DNA of 61,224 bases, filler included, from Dugesia japonica (GCA_001938525.1; 4 parts of 4 records of this genome joined end to end with filler, not necessarily neighbours in it); one strand, 5' to 3'; positions 19,028 through 52,732 are shown, counted from the whole stretch's first letter. Translations and numbers: made by a program. The notes: generated by a model from the sequence alone, not told the origin.

Positions 19028-20813
19028 TGTTGGGGCTTCATCTGAGTTGGGGTTAGAAAATTTATGGCTGGGGAAAAATCAGCCATCAGCGGATCCCTTC
19101 AAGAATTTATCTAATGTCCCTTATTAGATTTTCCGTACAGAGCGGTTGACTACCACCGTTTACTTGTAGTACTCACTCGTGTACCTTTGGTTTGGGTTCA
19201 TTATTTTCCCTTCGTATTTGTTAAAGAAATTAAGAATTCGCTAATATTAACATTTATTTTTAACTATTTGCATGTAATCGAGAGCACCCGGGTCTAATCA
19301 CTGGGTAGGCTCTTCAAGTAAAAAATGATAAAAGCGGCATCATCGTCGATGTCATCCCACCGGATCCATGCTTTGTTTCCCAATTGGCTAGATAGATCTG
19401 ATATATAATGTTGTAGGAAGTCAATTTTATAAAGGAGCAACTGTTTTGTCTGTTCCGCCAACTCGCCCTATTTTTTCATGTCAAGTTTCTTAATTAAGCG
19501 GTTTGTTTGTGTGAGATGTCGCAGGAGTGCCCTCTCGTTTTGCCGCTTAATGTGGCGTTCTAAAAGTAACTTTTGAATCAGGCGATGACACCTACGTAAA
19601 CTGGTGGATAACTGAATACAAGGCACTAAAACAGATAATAATCATTAGATTAAAATATAGACTGATCAAATTCTATTAGTTACCAAAAATAGTTATGAAG
19701 TACCAATCAAAAACTAGCAAAATAAATCAGTACAAAATCAAGGAGATTTTTATTTACAAATGACAAGCAGATGTAGAGGTCATGGCCGTGATGTTTGTAT
19801 GCTCCTTATCGTTCATAAGCGGTTCAAGCGGCATGGCTTTCTTTAAAGTTAAAATATCAGCTACCAGTTTTTTTACGGTCATTGAGGGACCGGATGATCT
19901 CTACAAAAGACTCGATTTGGGCCTTCCAGAGTCTCTCCTGCGCGTAATTGGCTTCTGCTTTCCGAAACGCTATACATTTCGCCTTTTACCTCTTTACTTT
20001 ACTTTTCGCTGTAGACGTGTCGGCCTTCCAACGACGCTTGGCGAGACGATATAAGTCCCAGGTCATTTTCTGGTCTTCGCTCATTTCTCTTACTTTTTAG
20101 TAGGTGCAGATAATCGGTTCAGTGATGAGTGCACTATAAACATATCATTATTAATTACGGAAGATCAAAGATCAGAAAATNNNNNNNNNNNNNNNNNNNN
20201 NNNNNNNNNNNNNNNNNNNNNNNNNNNNNNNNNNNNNNNNNNNNNNNNNNNNNNNNNNNNNNNNNNNNNNNNNNNNNNNNNNNNNNNNNNNNNNNNNNNN
20301 NNNNNNNNNNNNNNGTTTCTGTTCTGGACTGTGATTGGCATATTTTTACAATCCTTCTCAAGACTCTCCTGGTGATGGTAGAACTTTCCTGTTACGAAAT
20401 TCTATTGTACAGTTACCTTCTCTTTCCAGTTTATCTTATTGAAAGCCCCTGTTGTTTTTTTGAACGGATATATCTTCGAAAAACAGATTTTTGTCTAATT
20501 TTAAATCTTTTTTGTCTAAAATTAATTAATATTTTCCTGCTAATTAACCATTATTTTCAATATTAATTTCTTTGTTTTTTTTATAATTAATTATTTTTCT
20601 TTAAATTAATATTCTTGATTAAAGATGATACATCCATCTATCCGATATTCTCTTTCTTCGTTTTGCCTTTTTCTTCCGATTTTATTAATTATAAACTTTA
20701 GCCACCTAGTGATTATTCTTAATTAACTNTTTTCCGGCCCCTTACTTTATTATTTTCTGATTTTGGGTCCCTGGCCTTGATTTTCTTCTAAAATCGGGTG
20801 TTTTACCCCAACA
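19028..20813 (-). mobile_element. TGTTGGGG...CCCCAACA LTR-like element, copy 1 (gapped or internally deleted)
   Basis: 8-bp terminal inverted repeats; flanks ATAA/ACAA within an (AAT)n tract. Retains ORF A (acceptor before 20133) and ORF B (acceptor before 19625). Confidence 0.85.
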
Positions 20814-22779: not shown

Positions 22780-23440
22780 ATTGTTTTACTGTATCAACAA
22801 CATGAAGTTGTTAAATGGAAGCTGCAGTCAAGATAATATTTAAAGACGGCAGACTGATTTAGGAAAAGAATTTTTAACTCAACAATTAAAAATATTATTG
22901 ATCATCTAAAAATTAACCATTATTCTGTATTTTCACAATTCAAAGAAGTATACATTGAAAGATTTAATTGAACATTGATATAAAAAAGGACTTTGTACAT
23001 ACTGACAATAAAACCTGGATACATGTATTGCCGAAAATAATCAACAGTTTTAATCATACAAGTCATAAGGGATTTAATTGAGGAANNNNNNNNNNNNNNN
23101 NNNNNNNNAATTCAATGAAATTATGGTTATTGAAATAAAAACTAAAAGCAATTACAAAACCTTAATACGAAGTTGGGGCGATTATGTAAGAATCTCAAAG
23201 ATATCAGCTTCTCCATTCATCAAAAATTTCAATAATAATTTGAGAGAGGAAGTGTTTCAAAATTCAAAAATCATTCTCAAGCAGAATCCAATCATGTATG
23301 TGATTAAAGATCACGAAGAAAAAATCATTGTTGGAATATTCTATGAAGAATTACAAATCATTCCTCAAACAACATTAATAATTTATGGTGCATTTGAAAA
23401 TAAAATTCAAATTACTTCCAAAAGAAAAATATTGCTTTAA
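22780..23440 (+). pseudogene. Polinton/Maverick retroviral-like integrase fragment
   Basis: HYSVFSQFKEVYIERFN*TL...WIHVLPKIINSFNHTSH...GDYVRISK...EEVF...YVIKD...IVGIFYEELQ. Confidence 0.8.
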
Positions 23441-23449
23441 ACAATCTCA

Positions 23450-23790
23450 ATGTTATTTAATTATTTCAATTCAGATCGACAAAATAGGTAAAGAATGGCT
23501 AGGATCAGATTGGTTAGGAGTATATTCATTAGACAAAATTCCATATATTCCAGTTTAAAAAGTAATAATCGTCAGTTCTCAGTCCTCAAACATCAGAGGT
23601 GCACATTGGTTAGCAGTTTATCATAAACCGGAACATATACTAGTATTTGATCTATTTGGATTTTATTATCCACCAATACTTGTCTTGGAACTATCAAGTT
23701 TATCCGAGCCTATTATCTATAATAGAACACAGTACCAGCAATGACTAACGAAAACATGTAGACAACATTGCCTAATATGGCTAAGAAAAC
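23450..23790 (+). pseudogene. Polinton adenovirus-like cysteine protease
   Basis: WLGVYSLDKIP...GAHWLAVY...VFDLFG...YNRTQYQ...TCRQHCL gives the His/Asp/Cys triad pattern; lies directly after the integrase. Confidence 0.8.
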
Positions 23791-23989
23791 AGTATGGTGG
23801 ATGAAATTTTGTATTGAAATAAATGTATTGTATACAAAACGGTGTTACTATTTTCTTTGTAATTTTACTGTACGTTTTATTAAGAATATTTTTATTATAC
23901 CATTGGCAATGAGAAAAGATCAAAAGATCATGAGAATGAGATCAACGCCTTAATAAAAAAAATTCATAAATGGAAAAAGTATTTATTAT

Positions 23990-24701
23990 TAACTTCAAAT
24001 ACAGTCCAGATTATTAGAAAATCTGCGTATTTGTTTTTTTGAATTTTAAGTCAAATGATTTGAATTTTATTATCCTAACTTGATCGATTTTGATCAAGGT
24101 GATTATACTCTACAATTTAAATTTGCAAATTGAAGTATAATCTTATTTAATTTTGTAATTTTATAATAATACAATTTACATATCGCAGTTGCGAAATTCC
24201 AAATTAAAATATCTTAATTGATTATCTAGTAAATTTTAACAACGACTTAAGCTAAATTTCAAGTGCGAATTCAATCAATAACTCTAATCTAATTAATTTC
24301 TGTTTTTTCTGTGCAGAAACAACTTTTTATTTATATAAATTTGTGACCAAAAAAATAATTACTTATTTTGGCTTGGCCAATAAAATAAATTATTATAATT
24401 AGACAATATCTATTTTTGGTAATTTTTATATTCCCCAATTTGTACATTTTTAAATATAAATTACTATTTTTGTTAATTATTTTTTAATTATTATTTTAAA
24501 TACTATTTTTAGTATTTAATTTTGATATTTATTTATTTTTAGTAATATAATACATTTTAATTCTATTTTTAGTAATTTCTTAATTTTTCTATTGAATGAC
24601 TGTATAATTAATTATTATTAATTATTATCAATTATTATCTATAATAATATTTGCTTGTACAAAACATAAAACTGAGGCAGGATTCACACAAAACCTCATA
24701 T
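23990..24701 (-). mobile_element. Partial inverted copy of the TGTGAGGTT solo-LTR family (see 42304-43523)
   Basis: GGATTCACACAAAACCTCATA and CAGTCCAGATT...AATCTGCGT are near reverse complements of sequence at 42304-42325 and ~43015-43040. Confidence 0.6.
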
Positions 24702-25869
24702 TATTGAATTACCAAAATAATTCTTGTATAGTGGACATGGTCCTAGAAAAAAGTAATCTTATATTTACCATAAATATTACTATACAACTTTAATTACTTT
24801 TCCATAAATGATGCCAGAATACCACGAGAGTTGCATTAATAAAATAAAAAGCAAAGAAAAAACATACAGTACTTAAAATATACCGAAATTGTAATTATTT
24901 TTCATAAGAAGCATGGCATACCAGGTATCACGTTTCTAAAATTTATACTAAATAAAGAAAATATTCATAGAAAATAGAGAAAAATAAGGATAAATATAGA
25001 GAAATAGGAAAAATTTAACAAAATATGGAAAAATAGAAAAAATGGGTAAATAGTAGTAAATAAGGACAAATATTGAAAATGATGAAAAATAGAGAAAATT
25101 GATGAAAAGTTACAAAAATTGATAAATTTAGCATATTCAATGACTATATGTACAGAATTAATTTAATTCTTGGCGAGAAGATTTACGTTTTATAATATTT
25201 TCTGTGCAAACTCATACTTTCCAATGATAAAACTCGTATTTTCTATGATAAGACCATTATTACAATGATAAAGTTAGTACTTTGAACGTGGAACCATTAT
25301 TGTCCATGTTGAAACTCATATTTTCAATAACGAAACCATATAATAATGTATAAGTTTTAGTCAAATGACTGATTTTACTGACTGATAATTAGGCATTTAA
25401 AAGAAAATAAACCCTTAAACCCATAGTACATGAAGGAACTAATGAGCAATCAGAGATGCAAACAGATGATTATGAATGAAATATATTTTATTGAAAAGGA
25501 TACATATAATTAAAACAGAGTCTAAGTGACACGTAATAAATGCACACGTATAGTCTATTACATAATCAACAACATGATATTTGATCTATTATATAATAAT
25601 TAATTTATAGTTGGTATGTTTAGTAAGAAATAATCCACTGGAAAAGAAAAAGAAGAGAAGGATAAAATAAGTATGTTTGAGATAAAACCAATAAAGAGTA
25701 GGAGAGAAGAATATTAAAATTACTAATTTATTTCTATAAAGATTAGCAGTACCTATCTTTTTTAATCTTCTCTCTCTCTTTTCTGGTGGATTATTTCTTA
25801 TTTAACATAGCAATATTAATTATTACATAATTACTTGATATATTCATCCTTATTAGAAATTAAAACTAC

Positions 25870-26330
25870 AGCTTGAAGTTATAGTTATTAGCGATTATGA
25901 AACAATGGGTTAGGTCGAGGTATCTGATAATCCAGTTGTTGATCCGATTGTTGGTTTGATTGTTCATTCAGTTAATGTTCCGACTGTTGATCTAGTTGGT
26001 TGTTCTACTGATCTTGATACGGAAATAGGTGATGAATACAAGGTTTTAAGTAAATTTTTAGAAGAGGAAGCTCAAGTTAGTGCTTCTCTTAATATTGATG
26101 ATCCTGTTGTTGAAACTCATTTGCATAAATATTATCGAATATTAAAATAAGATGTTTCTAATTATAATATGAGAAAAATTGATCTGACTGAAAAATTAAT
26201 AAAGAAATTATTTGGTTTAATTAATTAAATGAAACATGTTAAAATTCAATTCTGTATATAAGTTGAATTTATTATGGATGAGGAAATAAAGACTTGTAGG
26301 TTATCTAATAGAACTGTTTCTTTGACCGAT
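25870..26330 (+). pseudogene. Polinton pPolB N-terminal fragment (second copy)
   Basis: KFLEEEAQVSASLNIDDPVVETHLHKYYRILK*DVS matches KYLQEVQVCGSLDESVIETDLHKCHQILKLDVS at 30095-30388. Confidence 0.65.
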
Positions 26331-26373
26331 AATTTCTTTTATGTAGTTAGTAAATGTTGGGTATTTAAACTCA

Positions 26374-26803
26374 TCAATACAATTTTATGTATTTTTGTTG
26401 TAATGCGGGTGTTAGATAGGCAAATCTAATGCAGTTGTTCTGTGGCGTCTTAATTAATAACGTGGATGGTACGAATTGACCTATTTCTGGACTTTTCTGT
26501 TTCTGGAATTCGGTACGTACTAAATTTTGTCTGTGAATTTTGCATGATCTGGAAGAGGGGCATGGTAAAATGTCGGAGAAGGTAATATCGAAATATTGGG
26601 TAATACACGCAAAACAAAAATAATGGTTACATTGTGCTATTCTGGGTAAGAAGGGTTGGTCGTAACAAAAGTGACATGTAGGATCGTGTTCTTCAAGTAA
26701 TGAAATTAAAGCGATATCGCGCCAACTATATTCAAATGGATTTACTGTTCCTCTGTTTTTTGTTTACGATTATATTATTTTTATTTATTTTATTTTGAGT
26801 CAT
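26374..26803 (-). pseudogene. Intronless RING-HC finger gene, RNF10/Mag2-like
   Basis: Frame missing from the ORF track: ...WRDIALISLLEEHDPTCHFCYDQPFLPRIAQCNHYFCFACITQYF...PCPSS...IGQFV. The ATG at 26803 is separated by a one-base slip in an A-run. Confidence 0.7.
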
Positions 26804-26809
26804 GCATGA

Positions 26810-27270
26810 AATTTAATTTCTTGTTTAAATTGATAGATATTTATGATTTCTTGTTTAATTAAGGTTAAATTATTTATTTTTTGTTTGAATTAAGTGAAAT
26901 TAATTATTCTTTGTTTAAATTTAACATAATTAATGATTTTTTAAGTAAATTAGTTGAAATTAATTATTTTTTCAAATGAAGGGAAATTACCCATTGTTTA
27001 ATTTAAATTTCCCCCGAGAAATATTAAGATTAGTCTCGCCGGACAATATTAATATGAATATAAGATACTCAACCGGGCAATATTAATATTAACATTAGAT
27101 GCTCCCCAACATAATATTAAAACAAATATCCTCTGGGCCGACATTTTAATATCATTAATATCCCCGGGCAGACATAATATTAACATTAATATACCTCATG
27201 CAATATTAACATTAACAATAATATCCCCCGGGAAATATTAATATTAAGATGATATGCTTTTCGTCAATAT
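26810..27270. repeat. Two blocks of ~31-bp tandem repeats (Polinton subterminal type)
   Basis: TTGTTTAAATTAAGTGAAATTAAT-like units, then AATATTAATATTAACATTA..CCC.GG units. Confidence 0.7.
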
Positions 27271-27449
27271 TAGCAATACATAAAAATATAAATACATAAA
27301 AAACCCATAAATGAATCAGTTTGATAGGTTACTTAATCCGATTCATTTTGTTTTTTCGCCTGATTATTAAACAATCAAATGAATTTCTAATAAATTCAAA
27401 TAAATTCAATACCTGTATATTCTATTGTTGATCCAAAGTCTTATTTATT

Positions 27450-30400
27450 GCGGTCAAACTATAATGTCCGTATAGAACACTGGTGTTTTCATGTGTCTAT
27501 ACTCTCTTATCGTCATTTTTGGTCAATGCTATTTTTGGTCCCATAAAGCTATACAATTAGTGGTTTCTTGTACCTATTCTAAATTGATTTACTGAGACCG
27601 GTTAATTGTTGTAACAATCTAGATACGACTGGTGTGTTAAGTCGCTATCTTTTAATGTTACCCCCTAAGCCTTCATGCTAGTCTTTTCGCCAAGGAGACT
27701 GTAACATTTCGGTCTCAGAAAATCCCATTCCTTATATTTTACACCTTTGCTTTCGTCTTTGAATTTCCCTACTATTGAGTTCAACTTGTTATAAAGTGGA
27801 TGTTATACACTATAATTTGATGTGTCTAACAACTCGTCCTGAACCATCAATTCTAGTAATCCTTCCAACTTAATGTCTTTTACTTCCAGGAAAAAGCTGT
27901 CGGTATTGCCTGCCACTATATTTATCGGTCATTTTTCATCCATCTGATATTTTTCAAGCTCGTTGTATTGGAGGTTATACATTCTTAGCTTACTCAAGTC
28001 CAACACTGTCTGACCAATATAGCTTGGACGATTAAGACAAACTGTATCCTTTTTTTAGCAATACCGCAATGAAATCCTGGTCTATTTTAACAGTTTTTCT
28101 AAAGTTTGGCTTCGAAGCGTATGTAATAAGTTTCTTGGCTGAATTGCACAATCTGAGATTCACCTGTTTCTTTAGATTTCTACTGTTTTTCCGTAGAGGC
28201 TGTCTAAAAGCTTGTAGTAATTTTTGTCTAGATCTGATGCACTTATGAATGTTAGTTCAGTATTTTCATCTATATACTTCTTCAAAATATAATCTTGTGT
28301 GAATTTAACGGCTCTATGTATTTTAACAATCTTAAAACCAAGTTGTACGTACAGTTGTAGTAATCACCAATGTACAACATAATTAAATTTGGTATATTGT
28401 GTTAATAATAACTTATTTACCTGGTATTTCAATATCAACTTCTACTGTGTAACCATACGATAATGAGTCTAGATCCGATGTTCTACATTCCATTGAAAAT
28501 CCATATATGGTAATTTCTGACTTAATGCTCACCCGTATAAGTTATTTATATCGATGTACAAAAGCTCAATGTTTTCTTCAGCTTTTTGACGATTGTAAGT
28601 CCACCTCTGATTCCTCCATCGAAAAATATGAACATATCATTGTCTGTAAGTAATTCAATAGGATCCTTTAGGATCATCAATGCTGATGCCCTGCTAATCC
28701 CTGGAATTCCAAAGAATGATAATGGCTCCAGTCCGTTGAGTGCTAGCGACTTGGCTCAAAATTGTTGAAAAAAGTCAGCTAGGAGAAATACATCTAGTTT
28801 TAGATAAACCATCATGTAGTCCGGTAAATTCTTGCATCCAGTAATAGTCCACATTTCTAGAGCCTTCTGATACGATTCTTCATTAATATCTTTCCATATT
28901 GGCGGCATACATTCGGTTTCTTCCAACACGGTCAGGCTTGTAGCAATGTCATATGGAATAATTCCCTTTGATTTGATAATTCTGTAGTCAATAAACTCCT
29001 TGGATGTTAATGGAGTTGTTTTAATTGTTTTAACAGCCGTGTCCAAGAAGCTATTGATAAACTGATATGAATCAATAAACTTCATGGTTACCTTTTCCAT
29101 AAACATTGTTGGTAAACATGAAATATCGCAGTGAGAAAATTGATTGAGTTCATATTTTAATATATGGTGCAATTCATAACCTCTAAGATTATGCAAGACT
29201 AAATGTAATTCATATAGAACTTTTCTACTGAGATTACATGTTGAACATGCAGAACCTAAGTATTTACTGGTTTAATGATCATGGTCTCGAACCGGTTTAA
29301 TGATTATCTTCTTACATAAATGGCAAATAGTCGTTTCTTTGAATTTAATATCTTCTTCTGTTGTTATTTCAATCTTTTCCTTGCTATTTTCTTGATAGTA
29401 AGGGTATACAATGTTCTTGGTAATTTCTTCAATCATTTTCAAGAAATTGTAAACCCAGTCTAATCCGATTAATTGATGTTATTGAAATTCATTAGTAAAA
29501 GTATTTTCTAACAAAAGTCCTGCTGATATATTTAGATGTTTCTGGTAATTTTCAGGATCCTTCTCTAGCACTGATTCGAAATCAGCGTAAATTACATAAG
29601 GTGAAGTCATATTTTTTGAATAATCTGTAAATATTAATTCTTTTTCTGTAGGCATTTTATAAAGAGTGGTTCCCGTTTGTATCTTTTCACAAATTGGTTC
29701 ATGGATCTGAAAAGATTTAGTTTATCTAATTCCATTCAGACTATTGGGACACTAGATTGATTGAATTCCAACACCATTCTTATTAATATCTCTGTTCATC
29801 AATCTATTTAAATTTACCACAGCAATTTAATGGAATTGATTGCGTTATTTGAAATTTATTTGAAATTTTTTTCCAATATCCTACTAAGAATCCAGCTACT
29901 TACTAATTCGCTTCTTACAACGATCTTCTCATTTAATACTCTAATTCCCTCTTTGAAAAACCTTTCACTAAGTAGCACTATTAGATAAATGACAATTTTT
30001 GATTTCATCTCTTATGAACTCAACATGAATTCCAAACTTAACTTTTACAAACCTTCATTTCTCCAATTATTTTCTACCAAACTATCTGTTAAAATTATCT
30101 CTCGCATGTTAATCTTGAAACATCTAATTTCAAGATCTGATGACATTTGTGCAAGTCGGTTTCAATAACAGATTCGTCCAAAGAACCACAAACCTGTACT
30201 TCTTGCAAATATTTTTGTAATACTTCTTCGGCAACATGTTCCTCATTAAGATCCTCTTCATTTAGTTCTTCAATTATTTGAATATTATTCCAGTCCATTT
30301 CTTTATTAACAACTTCTGGTTCGATAAAAATTGGTTCATTCTTGATTATTTCTTTCTCAATAACAATCACTTCATGGTGGACCATCAAGAATTTCCATTA

Positions 30401-30600
30401 ACAATTGTTTTTTACTTGAACTAAATTGTGTCAAATGATGTGCATTCGACCCATAAAAATCTTGGTATGTACTAAAACCTAATGTGGTGCATGCTAGACA
30501 AACATAATATTTTTTCCCGCAATAAATAAGACGTTAATATTTTTCCATTTTCTCATGACAGTTTGAATTTCCGCAATAGTTGTTTATATCTCTGTTGAAA
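27450..30600 (-). pseudogene. Polinton/Maverick protein-primed DNA polymerase B, near full length, decayed
   Basis: YADFESVL, RDHDH..SKYLGSACSTCN, HNLRGY, FIDSYQF, YLKLDVFLLAD, YIDINNLYG, SLYGK, GNTDSFF, GKFKDE, LRPKCYS; multiple stops and frameshifts. Confidence 0.9.
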
Positions 30601-30745
30601 CATATATAATTTAAAATCAATATCAAAATATCATTAATAAATCGTTATGTCATAAATTTGTTGGGGTTTCACTTGAGTTGATGGTGAAAAGAAACGCTGG
30701 CCGGGGAAAAACGGTCCTCAGGGGATCCTCGTCAACAATTTGAAT

Positions 30746-31131
30746 CTAACGTCTCTTTGTTAGATATTCAGTGTAGAGCGGTTGACCTCCAACTCTTATT
30801 TGAGGTACACACTCGTACACCTTTAGTTCGGGTTCCTTATTTTCATCGTCGTTGTCATCCCAACGAAGCCATGCCGAGTTTCCTAATTGCCTCGACAAGT
30901 CAGCTATACAGCGCTGTAAGAATTCAATTTTGTTTTGCAGAATCCTCTGTGTTTGTTCTGCAAGGTCACATTGTTTTTTCACGATGAAGTCTAGCTTTTT
31001 TAGCTTATTTCGCTGCGTGAGATGCTTGAGTAAGGCATGTTCAGTCTGTCGTTTGAGATGACGCTCTAACAGAAGTCACCAGATTATTCTGTTGCAGCGC
31101 CTCAAACTGTTGGGGAATATAATTCGTGGCA
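30746..31131 (-). pseudogene. Element ORF B, coiled-coil-like orphan (copy 2)
   Basis: After acceptor tttag|TG: PRIIFPNSLRRCNRIIW*LLLERHLKRQ...LAEQTQRILQNKIEFLQRCIADLSRQLG; homologs in copies 1 and 3. Confidence 0.75.
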
Positions 31132-31249
31132 CTAAATAAATAATGTTAATAAAATATGACTTAATTTTGATTCAAGACTAAATTTATAAAAAGAAAATAA
31201 TCCTTAAAATGAAGACCAGAGGTTACAATCAAAACTTTTATTTACAAAT

Positions 31250-31615
31250 TCAGAGTAAGTAAAACGAAATTCGCGACCGCCATGTCTGAATGACTTTGTC
31301 GACCATCAGAGGTTCGAGCGGCATCGCCGTTTTTAGCTTTAGAATATCATTGACCCATTCATTTTCTTGGTCTTGGCAGGACCGGATGACTTCGGTGAAG
31401 GACTCTATCTGCGTCTTCAATATTCTTTCCTGGGATTTGAACGCCTCAGCCTCCTTCCTAAACGCGACGCATTTGGCTTTGTATCGTTTTACTTTGGCCT
31501 CCGTGGAAGCGGTATGAGCCTCCCAACGTCGCTTTGCAAGCTTATATAGGTCCCATGTTATCTCCTGGCCACTACTTCTTATCAGGCGCTGCTGTGCGAT
31601 TTAATGATGAATGCA
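31250..31615 (-). pseudogene. Element ORF A, coiled-coil-like orphan (copy 2)
   Basis: After acceptor ttacag|TG: HSSLNR...TWDLYKLAKRRWEA...KCVAFRKEAEA...LKTAMPLEPL; homologs in copies 1 and 3. Confidence 0.75.
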
Positions 31616-31781
31616 CTGTAAACAAAATGAAGTATTAAATAGTAATCCTAGATAAAACAAAAAAGTTAAATAATAGACATATTTCCTATTACGATTTATG
31701 TGAGTCGTTAGTAACAAATTGTTAAACAGCGAAAGTTCAATTAATGAACAACAAAACAATGAAAGAAAGTGAAACGAATCG

Positions 31782-32207
31782 CTACACAGGAGTTTCATTA
31801 GCGGGATCAGAGTTTTTGGCATTGTTTTTTTCGACCAACTCGTGAACACTCCAGAGATGGTTTTGAATGAAAGCGCCCAGTTCAGAATAGGGAGGGATCT
31901 GCTCCGTGGACATACTCACAAACGAAGAGCCTTCTTGCCATACTCGAACCGTCTGGGGTTCCCCATTGATATCTATTTGGGTAGTGGTAACGGCGTGCAG
32001 GACTGTGCGGGTGCGATCTGGTCCGTCGGAGTTATAGTAAGATGCACGTTCGTTCGCATCCCATTCCAGTTCGTCGTTAAGTTCCTCCAGCGATAAATTC
32101 TGTCGTTCTACTAAAACCCCGGCATCTCTATTATGCGGGTTTCAGTACCTTTTAAATACGGTACGCCCCGTGCAGTGATCCAATACGACTTCCAATTTGA
32201 ATTCCAT
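31782..32207 (-). pseudogene. Element ORF C orphan (copy 2)
   Basis: ttacag|ATG, then MEFKLEVVLDHCTGRTVFKRY*NPHNR...YYNSDGPDRTR...LWSV...ETPV*; homolog at 44814-45233. Confidence 0.72.
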
Positions 32208-32365
32208 CTGTAAATTATTTTCGACATTTATGAGTTACTAAATGTATTACTTTATTATAAAATGAATTATACGAAAGGTCTATTATTATATGGGTGGTGG
32301 TTTAACTTTTATTTTAAACAAGATAGCATAGTAAGAAAAAATTATATTTATTAGCAGAATTAAAC

Positions 32366-32545
32366 CTATTCGTCCATGTCCTTATTTAACTTTAAGGGAA
32401 ATAACTCGACGAAACATAGTAAATCGGTTTCGTCGGGGTGTTCTATCTGTTAAGGGAATAGTAGATGAGTGATTAATTGTTTCATCCGGGTGGCTTTTCT
32501 CTGCTTCTGGATCAATCTGAATGTGCGTAACAGTTTTGCCGACAT
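32366..32545 (-). pseudogene. Element ORF D orphan (copy 2)
   Basis: MSAKLLRTFRLIQKQRKATRMKQLITHLLFP*QIEHPDETDLLCFVELFP; homolog at 44492. Confidence 0.7.
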
Positions 32546-35324
32546 TCTCTAAATTAATAATCCATAAACACTTTTAAACTCATTAAAACCTGTCACTATA
32601 TCCAATGAGTGACGTATAAAAGAAACATTCATCGTCCTGCTACTACCGACAACCCCTGAGTAAATATAAACTTAATAAAGGGTTGTGGGGGTATCAGTGT
32701 TGCTAACCATAATAATCATCAATAGAAGATTAGTAGGAGGATAATATAATTAATAACAAAAGTAGATAATAATATTATTAATTTTAATTGTAACAGTTAT
32801 GGTAGCAAAATTAATGAATTTGCTGACGATAATAATGAGGATGTCCTGAGTAGTAGCAGTAATAATACCCGCGCAAAAATTGCTCATAACCACATTATGG
32901 CTGGTATATTAACTATAAACATGGAACTAGTGAAAAGAATGATAATTACGTTACATCTTTAACGACTAATTCGATATAGCATGAATATTCTATAGTGATC
33001 CGCGAATTAGTGAGTCTAAACTCGAAACCATTGATTGAAAACGTAAAAAATAAATAATCTAAAACAATTATCCAGAATTATTAGTCGAATTAGAGTAATT
33101 GCCTATAATCATGGTGAAATAAAAACAGCTCTTAATTTGTAACTATAAAGTTATTGATATTATAATAATTCAAATATAATAACTCCTTATTAATTTATCG
33201 ATAAATTTGCGTAAAAAATAAAAATCTAAACATATCCATAATTGATATTTGCGATATCATCATCGTCGCGAGTCATGTATGATACGAATGTTTCATCGAT
33301 GTGAAAATTAGCTTGAATTCGATAAAATTGCTGGACTCCGGAATTGCGTAAAGCATATACCTCAATCGTGTGATAGTTAGCATCCAACAACAAGGAACGT
33401 TGTCACCAGTATTAAAGATCACCAGAACTTTATATAACTCTTCAATGTGAGCAGTTATAGAGAGATTTAGAATCAGAAGTAATCTACTACAGTAAAGTGT
33501 AATGCTACTTATGCACACCATTAAAAAAAAACATATCAACTAATTTAAGTGATACTTCAATTCTTGTGTGTGATGACTCAATTCCTGGTGAAGTGATGAG
33601 TGGTTTACATACTGGTAGGCAATGAATAGTTGTGTCAATTTTTTCTCTTCACTAAAATAGCTTAATATATTTCCACTTAGCAGAAATAAAAAGACCATAG
33701 GTGTCATTCGTAATGTGACGTTCTTTCTCACGATGGAGTTGTTTCTTAATTTGTCAGCAATAAATTTCTGGAGTAATGCATATCAACTCAGAATTTCTTC
33801 TGTAAGACTATGAATTGTAACAAAAATAAACCATAGTGCGTCGATCATACAGGCCATAGAGAAAAACGACAATAGTATTAATATATTGGTCTGCGCATAC
33901 TCGTTAGCTATCATAAAACAAACATAATAATTAAGATCATAATAATTTAACTAATCAATAATTTTTATTAAATTTTCATCTAGTACAACTAATATAAACG
34001 AAATAGATAATTAACACATGCTTACATTTATATAGGTTCTCTTGCTGCAACGAGGATAACGACAGTGTTGAATTAAATTCTTGAAATATTTCTTCGGTTT
34101 AACTGACAAACAATGTTCTCTTCTAAAATGTAGTTGTTAAATGTTATGAGTGAATAATTAAACCACTGATGAATAGTTGGTTGCTTCTGCAATAGTTGTT
34201 ATTATAAAATTGATTGAAGATTTCGTGCGTAACTCTACGAGTCGAGATAAAAATTTTTTTAAGCATATAAATGACTAAAATTCAGGTTGTTTAAATACTA
34301 ATTCTCGATGCATCTCGACACCATTGTTATTGGTTGCTATTTTTAATTCAAAATTCCTGCTTTCCATTGGTTCTGGTGTTGATTTTTCATGGATCTTTTG
34401 AACTTTTATTGTCTTCTATTTTTAAATCACTATGTGATGCTCGGGTCTTTGTTTCATTTTCTTTTTCTTTACACCTTATTGGCCCAATCTTTGAACCCTT
34501 GCAGAACCCCTCCTGGTGGTGATACGATTTTCCGGTTGTGAAATCCTATTACCCAGGTACTTTTTCTTTCCAGTGTTTCTTATTAACAGCTTCTGCGATT
34601 TTGCTGAGCAAAGTAATTCGTTAAATACGGATTTTTGACTAATTTTAATTTATTTTATTTAAAAATTAATTAATATTTTCTGGTAATTAATTATCTTTCC
34701 ATAGTAATTTTCTTGACTTTTATTATTAATCCAATAATTTTTTTAAATTGTTATCATTGATGCGGGTTAGCTTTATTCACCCAAGTTCTTCATATCCATC
34801 TTCACTTTTATTTTACTCTTTTAATGGTTATTTTCATTATATCCTATTTTTGATTTTAATTGCTTTTCCTTTCGAATTCCTTTATTGATAATTATAATAG
34901 CCCTGCCGTCTTTCTTTAATGATATGAGCTTTTTGCCTCATTTTCTTCTCTAACTGGGTGTTTCACCCCAACAAATTTAATTAAAATAATGTAAAATCAA
35001 CATTATCAAATTATTATATATTATAAATCAAAATAATTTAAAATGAATCCTTATCAATTACTTATCATTAATTACTTTGGTTGTTAAAAATTATGAGAAT
35101 GTTATTTCATTTTATTTTATTTTACTCAAACTAATTTTACTAATTTACTAATAAACTAATTCAATTAACATTACAATTAATTAGAATTTCTTACAAAACC
35201 AAATTTTTACAAATAATTACATTTAAAATCATTACAATTAAAATGAATATTACAAATTAAAATGTTATTACAAATAATTCAATAAAATAAATTCATAAAT
35301 TCTAACCTGGTTTTAAATTTAAAT

Positions 35325-36533: not shown

Positions 36534-36633
36534 NNNNNNNNNNNNNNNNNNNNNNNNNNNNNNNNNNNNNNNNNNNNTTAATTAATTAANNNNNNNNNNN
36601 NNNNNNNNNNNNNNNNNNNNNNNNNNNNNNNNN
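36534..36633. other. Artificial scaffold linker
   Basis: N44-TTAATTAATTAA-N44. Confidence 0.95.
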
Positions 36634-36890
36634 TTATTATAACGATGTATTATCAAATAAATATTTTTATTAGAATAATAAAGACTTTTAATCATCGCAA
36701 AATAACCGTAGGGAAATTATAGAACCCGAACAAAAGGTTTATAGGTGTGCACCTTCCATAAAGGGTAAGGTCAACCACCATAAACTGAAAACCTACCATA
36801 GGGACGGTAGGGTTAAATTCTTGAAAGGGTTTCCTTGAGGACTGTTTTTTCCCCAGTCACCTTTTTTCAAACTCAGGTGGAACCCCAACA
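36634..36890 (+). mobile_element. 3' terminus of a fourth copy of the TGTTGGGG...CCCCAACA element
   Basis: Ends AACTCAGGTGGAACCCCAACA; last ~170 bp align with 46375-46547. Confidence 0.85.
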
Positions 36891-38818: not shown

Positions 38819-39257
38819 TTAATCAAATTTGCCCAAAAGATCTGCTTCCCGAAATAAATAATATTCCTATGAATAGAATATTAAATACGTCAATTCAAAT
38901 AATTTATACTTTTTCGTCAAGTAAAAGTTTTGTTCCACCATATTCTGGGAGAAAAACTTTGTCACCTATTTTGACAGTGAGCGGCAATATTTTTCCATCC
39001 TTCAATATCATCAATAATATAATAAGTTATATTTAAATAAATTTACATTGGTTCTCATTCCCTCACCAACAGCAAGAACTTCACCTTCCAAAACCTTGCC
39101 TTTAGAAGTTTCAGGTAACATTATTCCTCCTTTTGATGTAGATTGAGCTTCAAACCTTTGGATGAGAACTCTATCAAATAAAGGCAAAAATTTCTTAAAT
39201 GCTTTTGATGCCTAAATCAAAATGTTCATAAGCTACTTTGCACATAAATCTTACCAT
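38819..39257 (-). CDS. HSPE1: 10 kDa mitochondrial co-chaperonin Hsp10, 101 aa, 4 exons (39255-39257, 39047-39211, 38910-38999, 38819-38866)
   Basis: M|ASKAFKKFLPLFDRVLIQR...SKGGIMLPE...VLAVGEG|DGK...GDKVFLPEYGGTK|EYYLFREADLLGKFD*. Three GT-AG introns of 43, 47 and 43 bp, all phase 0. Confidence 0.96.
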
Positions 39258-39281: not shown

Positions 39282-42200
39282 TTTGTATTGACTTTAAATA
39301 AACAACTAAATTTGTGTTTTTTCAATAGAAAGTTATAGAAAAATTTTGTGAATTAAAGTTTTTACATAATATTGTATATTTTATAAATATAATGTGCTTT
39401 CAATATATTGAATTATTTTTTTATTTATAGTATTTTACATTGAAATTTTATGACAGTTTTATTAAATATTTTGTCATTGCAAAATAAATTTGTTACAAGT
39501 AAAATTTATCTTTTTTACTATTCGTTTATTAAATAAAAGCGTCAACAATCAAAAATATGTAATAAATTATATAAATATTTGTTAAGCGCTGATCTATTAT
39601 CAAATATAAATTTCAAAATGCGAGAATCCAATTCTACCTATTTTCATAGAAGACTGCTAAAATATTGAAAAATCAAGTAAATAAACTTTGATGTTATTAT
39701 TTTAAAAACTGTGTATTATATAGCAGTGGTGCCCAACCTTTTTAGAATACCATTTTTTTAAAAATTATAAGGATCGACAAATGAGGTTTATGTATCAGTA
39801 GTATTACTTATATCGTATTTGTTTGAATTTAAAAGATATCCATCATCACATTTAGTAACATGAAAGTTAAACAGAATTTTTAAAAATGACTTAATAAAAT
39901 GTAAATTAAGAATGATCTTTTATTGCATTAAACTTCATCTTCGATTGCAATTTTTCTCCAAAGAACTGATTTGTGGTTTTTAATGATAATATCGACAGTG
40001 ATACTGAAAATGTCAGTTGCAATCGACATGCAATTCCAATTGACAGGTTGGAAACTATCATACTTATTTCATAACTTTTATTATAATCCTTAAGATTTTA
40101 GGTTATTAGTATTTTGTTCATTATTTATATCATTATAACCGCAAACATTTATCGAAATCTTGGTGACTTGTATCCAATCCTTCAGGTTCAACAAGTAGGT
40201 ATTAACTCTTTAGATTTCGGACGCTTGATGGTTGATGTTGTCTATTGATGTCTAGTACGATAAAATAATGTGAGAAATCAACTTGCTATTATTCGTAGGT
40301 CTATATGTATTGTTTCAACAGAAATTTAGGGGTTCAGAATAATTAATTTTGTACATCCGAGTAGGACTTAATGGTGTTAGGACTGTTCCTTCCTTTTAAC
40401 TTAGTGATTTAGTTTTTCAATAACCCCAGTAGTTCTTTCTGTTTTCTCTTCTGTTGTATCAAAGTAGCAATTAGAATTGGATATCTTGCGAAGCGGATGC
40501 AGTTGTTGTCATTGTTTTGTAACTAATTAACATTAGGCTGGAGATTTAAGACTAATGTAAAATCATTAAAGTAAATATATTAGATTTATCGCAATTGCAG
40601 TCTTATTCACGCCTTTCTGGTATGTTCATTATCTCTTAATGTTATTAATTTTATTTACTTGAGTACCTTCATCCTAGAAAATTAAGTATTTGTGATTCAA
40701 AAAATCATCACTATCTCACCACTGTTTATGAATGATTTTGGAAAAATTAACAGCTTATATTTACTTGTATTGGGGTGCAACACCCGTTTGGTAAAGAGCA
40801 TAAAGCCCAGGAGGCCTAAATCAGAAAGTAGTGAAGGAGGGGGGTAAAAAGAAAGTTAATTAGAACTAATTATCATTTGGTTAAACATTATAATAATTAT
40901 ACTAGAAAAAAGATCAGAAAGAACGATAAACGGCAGAAAGAAAACATCAGATGAATAAATACAATCCTGATCAACTTCAATAATTAAAGAAAATTAAAAT
41001 TTATTAAGAAAAAACAAGAAAATTATTATTGAAAACATACTTAATTAGGAGGAAAAAATTAATTAATTTTAGCCAAAAAAGAAGTTAAATTAGATGAAAA
41101 TCAGTTTTTGAAGGATATCTTGGCTCAAAAAAATCACAAAGGATCATAGTAAGAAAAACTGAAAAGAGAAAGTTTTAGGGCAATAGAATTTTGCAACAAG
41201 AAAACTTTACCATCGTCAGAAGATTCATGAAAAGGGTTTGAAAATTCGGCCAATCACAGTCCAGAAAAGAAACAGAAAATAAAGGCATAAAAATCAAAGG
41301 TGCTCCAAAAATAGGGAGCAATAATGTAGTAGAAAGTTGTCAAAATTTTTAGCATTTTAGACAAAACCCCAATCAGGAATTTGGAACAGAAAACAAAAAT
41401 AGATACCCAATACGAAGAGAATTGGGTTGTAAAGAAAAGGGTATATAAACCCTCCGGAAATTTAGAAGAAAAATCTCTCATTTTACTGAGTTTTGCTAGT
41501 ATTATGGCATCGGAATATTATTACTTTAGAGAAAACAAAAATTCTTCACCGAAAAATATTTAATTTATTGTTGAATTTTACACGGTAAGATCATCATTTC
41601 TAAAAAACTAATTCATTGGCGTAACATTTGAATTTCCAGAGAAGAAATATTCTATCAATTAACGAAATAAATTTAACAGCCAAAACCGACCACTAATTCC
41701 AAGTGAAACACTTTTATATTTTAAAGATTAAACCATTGCAGAAACCCTTTTTTTAACAGTAAGTGTGGTTTGTCGTATTATATTATTGTAATAACAATCT
41801 ATTGGTAAATAATAAATATGTTTAATGCTGGATTTATGTATTTTTTATATTAAATTTGTAGGAAATAATCATTTTAATCTATAAATCATAAAGTAATTAA
41901 AATACATTAATAAAAACCTTTATTTTTAACCACTTAAAGTGACATGAAGAATTTAATCTAGGGAGTGAGAACGAAAAAGACAACTAGAGTGGGTATGTAT
42001 CATGATCGATGCCTATTTAGATATTTTTCAGTGAGAAATTTAGTTCACTACCAGTCGATGATGTAGCACTATGAGAATTGTACCAAATTATTATGCTTCT
42101 ATTAAAATCAATAACATAAAATCACTCATAATTAGGCATGCATAAAAAACTTTTCAACACAGCACGGATGAGTCATCCTAGTACGGGTATCGAATCAGTA

Positions 42201-42303
42201 GCACAGGTTATCATTTATTCAATGCCATGTTGGGCAAAACTATGTTACTCGTCAGAAAGAATCATAATTTTTACTACAAATGTTTAAACTAACTCAAACT
42301 GTA

Positions 42304-43523
42304 TGTGAGGTTTCTTGTGAATCCTATCCCTAACATTATTTTCTTTAATATTTTTTTATAATAATATGATAACAATAATAACCAGTTAAATAATTAATAA
42401 GAAAATATATGATAGTAATAATTGTAAATAAAGAATTTGGTTAATAATAAATAATAGATAATAGGATAAAGTATAATTGCAAATAATATNNNNNNNNNNN
42501 NNNNNNNNNNNNNNNNNNNNNNNNNNNNNNNNNNNNNNNNATAATATTAAGTATAATAATAAATATAACAAAATAAAAATAATAATAAATTTTTTTAATT
42601 GGGCTTTGTTTCAAGCCGGTTAACTGTTTTAAGTTAGGTGACTAATAACTGTTACATGAGAGATTGTTATTGCAGGATTGAGAGTGTCCAAATTTGGTGA
42701 TGTGTGTTCATTTCAAAATCACCTAATTTGGACATATGCTATCTGTTACATACAATTTGATTGGTTGGACAATTATATATAATTGCAACCAAATAATCAA
42801 ATCGGCAGATAAAGCAGAACACAAATTAATTGTTTACAAAAAATTTGCTACATTTATTGAGAAAAGGTAAATTTAATTTTTCCTAAAATCCAAATTTAAT
42901 TTAAAAATTTCAGTTATATTTCTAGCGTTGAGAGGCTAGTGAAATATAATCCTTCGATCTACAGTATCGAGTTAAGTTTAAACTAAATTAAATACCTAAA
43001 ATCGATAAAGCAAACGCAGATTGTTACAATCTGGACTAGTTGCTTTTAAATAACTAAAAAGATTTTCCATACATTCATTTTTTTTATTAAGGCGTTGTGC
43101 TAAAAAACGGTGAGTCAACGTTTGTTTATTTTTGAGCAATTGCTCTTGTATACTCTTTACTTCATAGGATCACGCTGATTAAAGACTAGTAATTTTTGAT
43201 ATAAAATTTGTAGTTTTATTTATTTTGATATTTGTTATTTGTGATAGATAATACATTTTTGAAAGTTATTTTATTCATTTTTACATTTTTGTATTATTTC
43301 ATAATAATAATTAAAATATTGCAGTTCTGGTCAGAACTTACAAAGTACAGATCGAAATAAATATTAATTCCTTCCAAACTCATTTAATTTCCGCAACCGG
43401 AAATTAAATGATTTTAGACTCAGGTACTAGCACCCAGTGTGAGGAACCCTAAAATCATAGTTACATTTTTTCAATACTTTTTAATTACAAAAAACGCAAC
43501 CAAACACATTTTTGAACCTCACG
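42304..43523. mobile_element. Nested solo LTR of a second family
   Basis: Termini TGTGAGGTT...AACCTCACG; perfect TGTA duplication at 42300-42303 and 43524-43527. Confidence 0.8.
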
Positions 43524-44491
43524 TGTATTATAATGTTGGATTTCTCTAAATATAAAGTGTACAATCGTCCCATTATGTTAAATGGAGATATGAATGCTAC
43601 ATAATGTCGCAAATTCGCTTTGGGTCATTTTCTTTCTTCTTTTCTTTGAAATTTATGAATGAATAAATCAAGTAGTGATGCCATGTACCTATAATCGTCA
43701 AGGTAATTCACATCAATGAATAGTGGAGCTCATGAGTGATAACACGGTCATGTTGGGAGTGGAATAATTTTCTATTCTCGCCATGAAGATTGGAAGAATA
43801 GTTTTACTGATAGGATGGAAACTGTTAACAAAAAGACAATCCCAGTAATCTTTGACAATCGATTAACATCCTCACAATTCATGTTAGCGGCAGAAACAAC
43901 ATGGTGTGTGCCATTTATTAATTTAGTTATCTTTTGGTCGATTATCAATAATAAAACCAACCATTTTGTTGTTATTATCATTATATTTGCGGTGAATATA
44001 ATTACTATTATGTTATTACTAATAAAATTATTATTAACGGTGAGATTGTTACTCTTATTACTATGAGAAAGGTTATTTTATTATAATTTATATTTACAAA
44101 TATTTCGGGCGTGCTCATGATTTACCAGTAATTAAATTCACTTTATCAACGTATCTACTACTACTGATGCCGTGAATCATCATTATTAGCATTAATCCCA
44201 TGAGCTACGGCATGGTTATTAAAATTCTAGTAACATTAAAACAATTATCGGTGAAACAATTACGGGTATTATCATCTCTTTGATTACCATATTTAGTACC
44301 GCTATAATTTTGTGTTAATAGTGTAAGTACTAGATTAGCGGAAACACTATAGTTACCTTCTTTTTTTTCCAGGATTACATTTAGAGTTCGGGTAATGTAA
44401 AATGAATGTTTTCCGTTACACCCATACACGAATCACCTGAATCTTTTAGAATCTGCTTTGCTAATATATTAATAAAGGAACAGATTTCCCC

Positions 44492-44779
44492 ATGCTGGAC
44501 ATTCTAATCAGAACCCTCCTGTTGATCCTACAAGAGCGAGAGAAATCCCGTAAGAAACAGTTAATCGGCGATCTACTCTTCCCTGATCTAGTTCTATCTC
44601 CGGATGAACTGGATCTGCAATGTTTTCAAGAGTTATACCCCTCCCCTGGGAAGTTGATTTGGATACCGAATTATGACCACCCATTGATGTTTCATTGTAA
44701 AATAAATCATCTCATCGTTAAATCTCCTTTCTCTTTTATTAAATTTTTGCCATTATATTTGATATCATTTATCGACTAA
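44492..44779 (+). CDS. Element ORF D orphan (copy 3)
   Basis: MLDILIRTLLLILQEREKSRKKQLIGDLLFPDLVLSPDELDLQCFQELYP is homologous to 32366-32545. Confidence 0.6.
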   Translation: MLDILIRTLLLILQEREKSRKKQLIGDLLFPDLVLSPDELDLQCFQELYPSPGKLIWIPNYDHPLMFHCKINHLIVKSPFSFIKFLPLYLISFID

Positions 44780-44813
44780 TTCATGTCGACATATCAATTT
44801 TCTTTCAGTTATT

Positions 44814-45233
44814 ATGGAGTATAAATGGGAAGTTATTCAAGATAAGACCACCAGCCGAATGATATTCAAAAAATACCTAAATCCCTATAACCGGGTTTTG
44901 ACAGAGAGGTTCAATTTTCCTGCCAGGGTTGCGTATGAAGATAAAATGATGGACGCCACTGATCGTCAGGCGTATTACCACTAGACCGGTCCCGATCGCA
45001 GCCGTGTTACCTTCTCTGTAGGAATGATATCCACAGACTACATAAATGGCGTGCCGATTTATGAGCGGATTTGGAGAGAACACATACCTCCTCCTTTAGC
45101 ACCTATCATGACTCCTGTATGATTAGATGGCTTAGTTAATGACACGCTATGGAGTGTTCGTAATGCTTCAAGTGGCGGCAGCGAAGAAAATGTCGATCTA
45201 TCCCCGAGTGACGAAACCCCAGTAAAAACCTGA
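44814..45233 (+). pseudogene. Element ORF C orphan (copy 3)
   Basis: tttcag|ttattATG, then MEYKWEVIQDKTTSRMIFKKYLNPYNR...YYH*TGPDRSR...LWSV...ETPVKT*. Confidence 0.72.
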
Positions 45234-45426
45234 TTCATTGATGATCCTTGTTATGTGCAAATAATATATTATCTTTATATTATTTAATATCTTCCTTATT
45301 TAATAAACAACGACATTATATTGGTTAGATAAACTTTACTAACGCATTTTTACAAAATTTAATCATCAATAAACAACCTGACCTGAATTGCTACTCGTCA
45401 TTTAAATGTATGATTTACTTTTCTAG

Positions 45427-52014: not shown

Positions 52015-52055
52015 ATTTTAAATAAATTAATGTTTGGAAAGTAATAATTAACTAA

Positions 52056-52696: not shown

Positions 52697-52732
52697 TTTC
52701 GTGCTTTTTTATAAAAACAAAATAAATATTTT

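Follow-up and report, generated by a model that had tools for sequence, protein, structure and literature searches.

Accessory genes that overlap an LTR or are expressed by splicing are familiar from retroviruses, e.g., sag of MMTV, nef of HIV, bel/bet of foamy viruses and tax/rex of HTLV, with one gene located in or overlapping U3. Like the spliced ORF3s of rotifer LTR elements (PMC5408684), they code for small proteins, some of them coiled-coil and some encoded in the LTR. As a rule, LTR retrotransposons express their extra ORFs through spliced mRNAs (PMC5408684). The giant Gypsy elements of planarians comprise 25 kb inside and more than 30 kb in total and carry accessory ORFs (PMC6431247), which implies LTRs of several kb. 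Decayed fragments of these Burro/GYPSM1 elements of dugesiid planarians have been reported in Dugesia japonica (PMC6431247). LTRs of animal Metaviridae follow the att consensus TGTTRNR...YNYAACA and have a short inverted repeat, a TATA motif and a conserved 3' part; modelled Gypsy LTR sets average 174-695 bp (PMC3601003). Ginger2/TDD DNA transposons have TGT...ACA ends and a 4-bp AT-rich duplication as well (PMC2836005).

We analysed a window of 61,224 nucleotides from D. japonica (GCA_001938525.1), in which parts of four records of the genome are joined with filler. Three copies of a repeat were found in it, together with the 3' end of a fourth and a more distantly related 5' remnant of a fifth. 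These repeats are probably decayed solo LTRs of a very large Ty3/Gypsy-type retroelement with several subfamilies that diverged long ago, and the LTR itself would encode a spliced accessory cassette. Compared by description only, they share with Burro/GYPSM1 the flatworm host, the implied multi-kb LTRs and the accessory ORFs. There, however, BIR, BCL2, MATH, ankyrin and env domains are located in the polyprotein or in an upstream accessory ORF, and the account of accessory functions mentions no LTR-internal genes (PMC6431247); none of these domains was matched in our Pfam scans. The repeats share the ends, the short inverted repeat, the TATA motif and the conserved 3' part with LTRs of animal Metaviridae, but are 4.3-5.8 kb long and contain four selected coding segments. 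Unlike in complex retroviruses, four genes follow one another with operon-like spacing and seem to be located downstream of the LTR promoter.

Repeat copies, ends and insertion sites

The first-pass annotation had listed copies at 19028-20813 (-; copy 1), 30659-34973 (-; copy 2) and 40768-46547 (+; copy 3) and a 3' end at 36890, and all of them were located, on two scaffolds that are linked in the window by N44-TTAATTAATTAA-N44 at 36534-36633. The fourth copy (36634-36890, +) is truncated to its 3' end by the scaffold start. Absent from that list was the fifth remnant at 48495-48916 (+), matching element positions 253-704 of copy 3 with a score of 114 (maximum 85 among 300 local shuffles); p values were 0.04 against copy 1 and 0.12 against copy 2. 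The four main copies occupy 27 % of the 44.4 kb nuclear sequence in the window. An 18S fragment was the sole Rfam match, and ARAGORN detected no tRNAs. Where alignable, copies 1 and 2 share about 70 % identity. The repeat family is real, but a common size of about 4.5 kb did not hold: copy 1 has 1.8 kb (gapped), copy 2, the sole gap-free copy, 4315 bp and copy 3 5780 bp (gapped), and the middle is without similarity between copies 2 and 3. The halves of copy 3 on either side of its N gap (42490-42540) are linked by scaffolding only. Copy 1 consists of the 5' region, an N gap (20181-20314), exons A and B and the 3' block. It had been described as retaining only A and B; these are present, but the gap is exactly where the middle, D and C are expected, thus the missing D and C may be an assembly artefact.

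Six of the seven ends read TGTTGGGG or CCCCAACA and the 5' end of copy 3 is off by one base, in agreement with the TG..CA-type ends seen before. The att consensus of animal Metaviridae (PMC3601003) was matched exactly at six of the seven ends and with one mismatch at the remaining one. The perfect terminal inverted repeat has a length of just 8-9 bp (9 bp in copy 2), as at the att sites of LTRs. Beyond it, self-similarity at 60 bp was not significant in copies 2 and 3 (p 0.61 and 0.50), while copy 1 showed a degenerate inverted similarity to about 55 bp (0 of 1000 shuffles). Self-BLAST found no direct terminal repeats within one copy, a difference to the non-autonomous TRIM and LARD elements; the best direct local scores of 5' versus 3' parts (22-30) were short internal AT-rich matches.

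The flanking 4-mers announced as target-site duplications were all present: AATT/AATT in copy 2 (30655-30658 and 34974-34977), CTTG/CCTG in copy 3 and ATAA/ACAA in copy 1. A duplication of 4-6 bp on both sides is expected of Ty3/Gypsy LTRs. Only the duplication of the gap-free copy 2 is perfect, the other two match in three of four positions; by chance, a 4/4 match would occur with a probability of 0.008 and one of 3/4 or better with 0.08. The pair of copy 1 has to be seen as uninformative, because its flanks sit in a (TAA)n microsatellite and also match 6/7 at length 7. Flanking 6-mers matched in only 1-2 of 6 positions. All three insertion sites read A-NNNN-T and none RTATAY, in a small sample. 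That two of three duplications are imperfect and a mobility gene is absent would suit a host gene family that became dispersed, or ORFs that arose by chance, with over-read terminal motifs. This reading is barely credible: copy-to-copy homology extends up to the TG and CA ends and then ceases, the codon signal is far beyond chance, and nine of the ten gene copies are broken.

In agreement with the first-pass annotation, neither gag, pol nor a transposase was found in any copy, the longest stop-free frame covering 100-119 aa, and no integrase-core Pfam match in the element was above the cutoff. Neither PBS nor PPT was present at any of the seven flanks. Copies 1 and 2 as well as copies 4 and 3 were rejected as paired LTRs: polB-type remnants separate the two (-) copies, and a Cpn10 host gene the two (+) copies. 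The proposed solo LTRs of a giant retroelement with LTR-borne accessory genes are favored by the att-like ends and the CCAAT/TATA block, but no copy pairs around PBS-gag-pol-PPT in the window; the solo state is thus one that we infer, and the missing pair is expected for solo LTRs.

Polinton/Maverick elements contain polB and an integrase inside long terminal inverted repeats and create a 6-bp duplication. Copies 1 and 2 flank a decayed polB (Pfam DNA_pol_B_2, E 1.3e-6), a RING frame and, by eye, integrase-like and protease-like frames, which would fit a satellite or terminal module of an adjacent Polinton-like element. We consider such a module very improbable. None of the copies contains the polB within its limits, no Pfam match at E 0.01 was obtained for the integrase-like and protease-like frames, Polinton ends and 6-bp duplications are absent, copies 1 and 2 have only the above 70 % identity and different flanks, and the three pieces on the other scaffold have no neighbours of these kinds in the frame listing.

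A further alternative, also raised in the first-pass annotation as an integrase-mobilised cassette, is a non-autonomous DNA unit with a left promoter, cargo exons and a right poly(A) signal, cut and pasted in trans by a Ginger2-like or other Gypsy-type integrase, with the cargo selected for a benefit to the host cell lineage. The TGTNR ends and 4-bp AT-rich duplications of Ginger2 (PMC2836005) have their counterpart in the TGTNR ends and the 4-bp duplication found here, the inverted similarity in copy 1 and the variable middle between conserved subterminal blocks would agree, and the unit appears self-contained, in a window without a partner LTR or interior. Ginger2/TDD elements have, however, tabulated inverted repeats of 45-297 bp, a transposase and the RTATAY target (PMC2836005), against the 8-9 bp, the lack of any transposase-length frame and the target sites of the repeats. 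Long purifying selection on a non-autonomous cargo would also be harder to explain. Such a cassette appears fairly unlikely, and solo LTRs are preferred.

Conserved non-coding blocks and the variable middle

The end blocks aligned between copies 2 and 3 with z scores of 18.9 and 17.0, and the non-coding end blocks are 68-85 % identical between copies. The conserved purine-rich 5' region of copy 2 (34270-34973, -) is U3-like and, judged from its sequence, may act as a promoter. A common CCAAT/TATA block at element position ~480-700 is oriented toward the cassette. In copy 2, CCAAT is found at 34482, 34370 and 34333, followed by a TATA-like block at 34298, and in copy 3 at 41250, 41369 and 41407, followed by the TATA block at 41441. 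The three boxes are at corresponding positions in both copies; copy 1 also has the first of them, and the fifth remnant has a single one, with CCAAT at 48712 and a TATA block at 48887 preceding the end of the alignment at element position 704. The TATA pattern was derived from the three sequences it recovers, so its chance count of zero is circular.

The variable middle of copy 2 (32546-34270, -) was unalignable with copy 3, with a z score of 0.6 for a 700-bp slice and no local match above the shuffled background over the whole middle. The non-coding 3' block (30659-30843 in copy 2, -), a U5/att-like region, is common to all four 3' ends, with 72-85 % identity to copy 3. A donor-like GTG.G is located 146-154 nt from the 3' end at all four ends, with an in-phase ATG 25 nt upstream at two of them. 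Of an LTR an internal Pol II promoter and a poly(A) signal close to the 3' end are expected, and AATAAA is close to the 3' end in two of four. For the 3' block, folding gave no support for a stable RNA structure (z 0.26 and -1.05).

The coding cassette: selection, homology and structure

The first-pass annotation had described four small ORFs in the fixed order D-C-A-B. This order is kept in copies 2 and 3, and the peptide motifs quoted for them (TWDLY.L.KR.W, KCVAFRKEAEA, LLLERH.KRQ, DE.DL.CF.EL.P) are present, but A and B are without a start of their own and nine of the ten gene copies are visibly broken. Gene D starts at its own Met in copy 2 (32366-32545, -; 59 aa) with an in-frame stop at 32452, while D of copy 3 (44492-44779, +; 95 aa) is the sole gene copy without a visible break. 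Gene C of copy 2 (31782-32207, -) has its own Met right after an acceptor-like AG and an in-frame stop at 32144; in copy 3 (44814-45233, +) stops are located at 44982 and 45120. Exon A codes for a basic region and a heptad helix. It follows an acceptor G at 31616 in copy 2 (31250-31615, -; broken in the 5' block), at 45426 in copy 3 (45427-45785, +; stop at 45531, AATAAA downstream) and at 20134 in copy 1 (-, inside 19028-20813). Exon B, with a heptad helix, follows an acceptor G at 31132 in copy 2 (30844-31131, -; stop at 31078), at 45941 in copy 3 (45942-46302, +; broken by a stop and a frameshift) and at 19626 in copy 1 (-, likewise inside 19028-20813). About 140 bp after 30844 are missing from B of copy 2 relative to copies 1 and 3. 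D contains an acidic DLxCFxE motif, which resembles the Rb-binding motif LxCxE and carries an extra residue in both copies; we regard it as a lead only.

Judged from the substitution pattern, all four coding segments were shown to have been under purifying selection formerly. Their pN/pS ratios were 0.22-0.45, while the shuffles had medians of 0.84-0.98; the observed ratios are far below the value near 1 that had been named as speaking against the proposal. In all eight pairwise comparisons, which were drawn from three copies and are not independent, none of 2000 shuffles reached the observed ratio. The compared blocks were chosen from tblastn matches, which creates a bias toward low pN, and synonymous sites are saturated (pS 0.63-0.97). 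The 13 codons following the acceptor of A are themselves selected (p 0.0005-0.0055). Conserved proteins between far more diverged spacers, as described before, were also evident in the alignment of copies 2 and 3: z scores were 9.5 for D, 9.9 for C, 22.9 for A and 13.5 for B versus 0.1, -1.1 and 0.8 for the unalignable spacers.

Searches of the large protein set covered A, B and C. Among 1.84 billion representatives C had two matches, P0005 and P0006; with the C profile only P0005 was retained among 225 candidates and is an outside homolog of C. P0006, a 929-aa tandem repeat protein with 26 residues matched, was rejected as a chance match. A alone found no match among two candidates (63-203 aa only) and the B profile none among 1776 candidates (36-167 aa only). 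A scan of prokaryotic genomes with A resulted in 111 pattern matches, none confirmed. Pfam matches stayed below the cutoff for A and B, and C and D had one weak match at most; PHROGs gave 0/5, and PDB sequence searches best E values of 1, 0.089 and 0.32. In Atlas, A scored 0.87 and D 0.85 at best. An Atlas lead to bZIP proteins scored 0.86 with 22 % bZIP_2 members, and Pfam scans of A or B matched no bZIP family. A and B show heptad periodicity, and a basic stretch is also present; as paralogs they were rejected (probability 0.1 %).

The model of A, based on the copy 3 sequence, consists of a short helix and a 50-residue helix, for which Foldseek found no match. Co-folding of A and B reached a score of 0.51 versus 0.00 for the best of three controls, which were unrelated proteins unmatched for coiled-coil character. 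The runs agreed in at least 87 % of contacts, with a partner pLDDT of at least 78. Of 78 solved pairs 51 came up to this mark, as did 2 of 108 mismatched pairs; among those that passed, only 5 solved pairs (of 78) but all four mismatches (of 180) scored 0.60 or lower. Modelling thus lends weak support to a pairing of A and B. The model of C had a pLDDT of 45, too low for meaningful fold searches; the best Z was 3.8, and viral structures gave nothing at E 0.001. A dsRNA-binding-like domain (alpha-beta-beta-beta-alpha) for C was dropped on these values.

Proposed expression of the cassette and its significance

All six A and B starts present YAG, then two nucleotides, then the conserved frame, and the T fraction upstream of these acceptors was 0.47-0.59 versus 0.30 over 544 AGs. 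An in-frame Met upstream of B was absent in all three copies. A and B resemble exons headed by a splice acceptor rather than free-standing ORFs. In copy 1 exon A could be unspliced, since an in-frame Met precedes its conserved block by three codons. The phase of the C acceptors differs between copies. Between TATA and D, the search for a conserved phase-1 donor preceded by an ATG had no result; one phase-1 donor candidate is located in copy 3 (43703), and none scored at least 7 in copy 2. Two layouts were compared, a promoter-first arrangement and exons in U3 that would use a donor within the last 150 bp, such as the GTG.G near the 3' end; the former is moderately favored.

An operon would provide a different route, in which spliced-leader trans-splicing at the acceptors would resolve one transcript into separate mRNAs for D, C, A and B, and would be compatible with either mobility model. 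The spacers of 136-191 bp are below the 300-bp operon threshold for parasitic flatworms (PMC12582326). AATAAA or ATTAAA is located 105-128 nt ahead of the acceptors of B (3/3) and C (2/2), near the ~100-nt intercistronic spacing reported for S. mansoni and Macrostomum. In copy 2 the 200 nt ahead of A contain neither signal; copy 1 is gapped there. A leader ending in AUG, as known from flatworms, would open a phase-0 frame that ends after 4 codons in A (3/3) and after 9-15 in B. The selected frame begins two nucleotides later, and B lacks a conserved Met. Trans-splicing is considered quite unlikely.

For the preferred solo LTRs with a spliced cassette, an integrase would insert the full element, and LTR-LTR recombination would then delete the interior. 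Transcription would start near element position 700. D and C would start at their own Met, while A and B would be alternative 3' exons requiring an upstream phase-1 coding exon; this first exon is predicted in the variable middle of copy 2, where it was not found. The intergenic AATAAA sites would terminate shorter mRNAs. Internal poly(A) signals in a transcribed LTR are awkward for this reading and require read-through for the genomic RNA. The D, C, A and B proteins would be accessory regulators rather than replication enzymes. We tentatively propose, as a possible though doubtful function, that A pairs with B in a basic coiled-coil heterodimer, which together with C and D raises element expression or the survival and division of carrier stem cells; long-term selection would then follow from the boost to the element or to the stem cells.

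A new kind of eukaryotic mobile unit is an unlikely outcome: an integrase-mobilised high-copy cassette without its own replication or transposase gene and without a parent LTR element, which would express four orphan regulators from one promoter by alternative splicing or operon-type processing and favor carrier stem cells. Searches of open-access main texts listed no description of this gene-carrying LTR-like repeat, and the LTR may already have an unannotated entry in Repbase or a planarian repeat library. LTRs are usually regarded as non-coding, and solo LTRs are seen as promoters scattered over the genome. If the spliced LTR cassette is real, every solo LTR of the family would once have been a complete unit for the expression of up to four orphan proteins under selection, in high copy throughout a flatworm genome. 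The tampering of planarian retroelements with host cells (PMC6431247) would then extend from the polyprotein to the LTR, and kilobase-long LTRs would have one explanation and RNAi four targets.

Copies of the repeat family and selection on the coding segments

Self-comparison of the window recovered the three copies and the single 3' end described in the first-pass annotation, i.e., copy 1 at 19028-20813 (-), copy 2 at 30659-34973 (-), copy 3 at 40768-46547 (+) and copy 4 at 36634-36890 (+), which is cut by a scaffold start. A fifth remnant at 48495-48916 (+) is similar to the 5' region of copy 3. N44-TTAATTAATTAA-N44 linkers separate the four scaffolds; within the copies, N gaps are absent from copy 2 only, copies 1 and 3 being gapped. 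Copy 1 had been read as retaining only A and B of the four co-oriented segments D, C, A and B; these two stand, and the apparent loss of D and C coincides with an N gap at their expected position. The 4-bp target duplications assigned to all copies held in part: that of copy 2 is the sole perfect one (chance 0.008), that of copy 1 lies within a microsatellite. The target sites flanking copies 1-4 read A-NNNN-T, with A before the duplication in 3/3 and T after it in 4/4 at base frequencies of about 0.36 each, a pattern that may reflect an integrase preference.

Aligned to each other, copies 2 and 3 scored z 18.9 over their initial 520 bp and 17.0 over the terminal 180 bp. Values for the segments D, C, A and B were 9.5-22.9; positions 520-900 gave 3.8, a slice of the middle 0.6 and the stretch immediately preceding D 3.2. 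The spacers (z -1.1 to 0.8) are more diverged than the genes, as had been noted by eye. Instead of a dN/dS near 1, pN/pS was 0.22-0.45 across the cassette: 0.38 for D (37-codon core only), 0.45 for C, 0.22-0.32 for A and 0.23-0.29 for B. Column shuffling gave medians of 0.84-0.98, and the observed value was reached by none of 2000 shuffles in all eight comparisons, which used blocks from tblastn matches and, coming from three copies, are not independent. The compared blocks contained 1-2 stop codons where 4-14 were expected. The coding signal of all four segments is strong. Synonymous sites are saturated, thus the copies represent long-separated subfamilies; nine of the ten gene copies in the window carry stops, frameshifts or deletions, so selection preceded the decay of these insertions. 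The repeat family with its cassette is a real feature.

Surrounding DNA

The first scaffold is a mitochondrial genome (1372-16678, (-)) that reads with the flatworm code; in the assembly, cox1 and nad5 are each spread across two frames. The genes, named by eye, are ordered cox1, nad6, nad5, cox3, atp6, nad1, cox2, nad3, nad2. Judged by the triclad order, the host would be a planarian. The block nad6-nad5-cox3 is a trait of trepaxonematan flatworms, according to PMC5446695.

Another A-rich element, starting TGTTGGG, begins 77 bp from copy 1 (20891 onward, (+)). It has a TATA-like site near 21692 and weak similarity to the family 5' end (p 0.013-0.07); a search for its second end gave no convincing candidate. 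A decayed Polinton-like gene set occupies 22780-30500, between copies 1 and 2. It comprises polB (~27.4-30.5 kb, (-); Pfam DNA_pol_B_2) and a RING finger (26377-26763, (-)), together with two frames that were recognized by eye only and have no Pfam match, one integrase-like (22.8-23.4 kb, (+)) and one adenain-like (23.5-23.8 kb, (+)). Copy 2 lies upstream of the polB region, within a few hundred bases, and a coding stretch upstream in that region (30098-30397, (-)) has an inverted partial duplicate at 25914-26160 (+) (78 % over 55 bp; tblastx E 2e-5). A Cpn10/HSP10 host gene with short introns is located at 38900-39211 (-) (Pfam E 1e-13). Copies 1 and 2 were rejected as an LTR pair for the polB-type remnants between them, copies 4 and 3 for the Cpn10 gene. 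Frames with several C2H2 fingers (52055-53257, (-)), preceded by a nuclease-like motif seen by eye, are probably another decayed mobile element. The last scaffold also contains a reverse-transcriptase RNase H fragment (53652-53828, (+)) and an 18S rRNA fragment (59883-60128, (-)), neither linked to the repeat family.

Gene structure and predicted proteins

Copies 2 and 3 have three CCAAT boxes and a TATA-like block in common at element positions ~480-700. The first CCAAT is also present in copy 1, ahead of its gap, and one CCAAT plus the TATA block in the fifth remnant, whose alignment stops at position 704. The block is oriented toward the cassette and is a putative promoter. In 6/6 cases a T-rich tract and YAG mark the start of conservation of A and B, and the selected frame opens 2 nt after the YAG. 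B lacks an in-frame upstream Met in every copy. In copy 3 the frame of A extends ~24 codons beyond the TWDLY motif in the 5' direction, and the 13 codons of A directly after the acceptor are under selection. From acceptor and frame pattern, the missing Met of B and the selected 5' codons of A, both look like phase-1 exons requiring an upstream coding exon; an in-frame Met in copy 1, three codons ahead of the conserved block, argues against a spliced A. Splicing is common for the additional ORFs of LTR elements (PMC5408684). One donor candidate was found in the middle region, confined to copy 3, and a donor-like site in the terminal block at 4/4 ends, two of them with an in-phase ATG; the phase-1 donor required was identified in neither region. 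For D and C, a Met is present in each of the two copies carrying them. Low-complexity Ile/Asn-rich frames just upstream of D (32750-32960 in copy 2, 43775-44330 in copy 3; z 3.2) may be a further, fifth exon of hydrophobic character or decayed simple repeats. Downstream of A, AATAAA occurs in 3/3 copies; the B and C acceptors are preceded by a poly(A)-like signal at a distance of 105-128 nt. Operon-type processing of the cassette, which would bear on expression and not on mobility, agrees with the gene spacing seen here (PMC12582326, PMC8629364), but the reading frames disagree and we consider it improbable.

A and B are basic helices bearing heptads; paralogy between them was not detectable and a bZIP assignment was not supported by Pfam. 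Their co-fold scored 0.51 against 0.00 for the best control (contact agreement at least 87 %, pLDDT at least 78). The co-fold mark was reached by 51/78 solved and 2/108 mismatched pairs, and the range up to 0.60 held 5/78 solved pairs together with all 4 passing mismatches of 180. The model thus lends weak support to an association of A and B. Structure prediction gave no usable model for C. The sole outside relative of C, P0005, is an unnamed protein of 94 aa from a single ENA record (512 bp), with the identical starting Met and 45 % identity across residues 1-66 (E 4e-10). The similarity ends at residue 66 as if by frameshift or truncation; the short record would, at a guess, suit a transcript.

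Mobility and possible role

The retroviral-type ends previously recognized agree with the att consensus of animal Metaviridae (PMC3601003). The copies look like solo LTRs, being isolated, bounded by att-type ends and provided with a duplication of their own and a promoter region, and we regard this as the probable nature of the family. Planarians are known to carry giant Gypsy elements that have accessory ORFs and LTRs of several kb (PMC6431247). Pairing around an internal domain, on which this reading had been made to depend, was not seen within the window; PBS or PPT were absent at 7/7 element flanks, and neither a direct terminal repeat nor a long open frame was found within the copies. The ends are also compatible with those of Ginger2; however, the perfect inverted repeat measures 8-9 bp, compared with 45-297 bp in Ginger2/TDD (PMC2836005). 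We consider a non-autonomous DNA cassette unlikely.

Accessory genes in LTR elements are known. Our literature search found no invertebrate LTR that holds a selected, apparently spliced cassette of four segments; the LTR could already be described in Repbase, in the original paper on the giant planarian Ty3/Gypsy element Burro or in supplements. The available portions of PMC8532177, PMC11410931, PMC13238120, PMC13524379 and PMC12870015 hold nothing on LTR-borne genes. By analogy with the apoptosis-related domains of Burro, the cassette proteins might tentatively be seen as an accessory regulatory set that would boost element expression or the survival of carrier stem cells.
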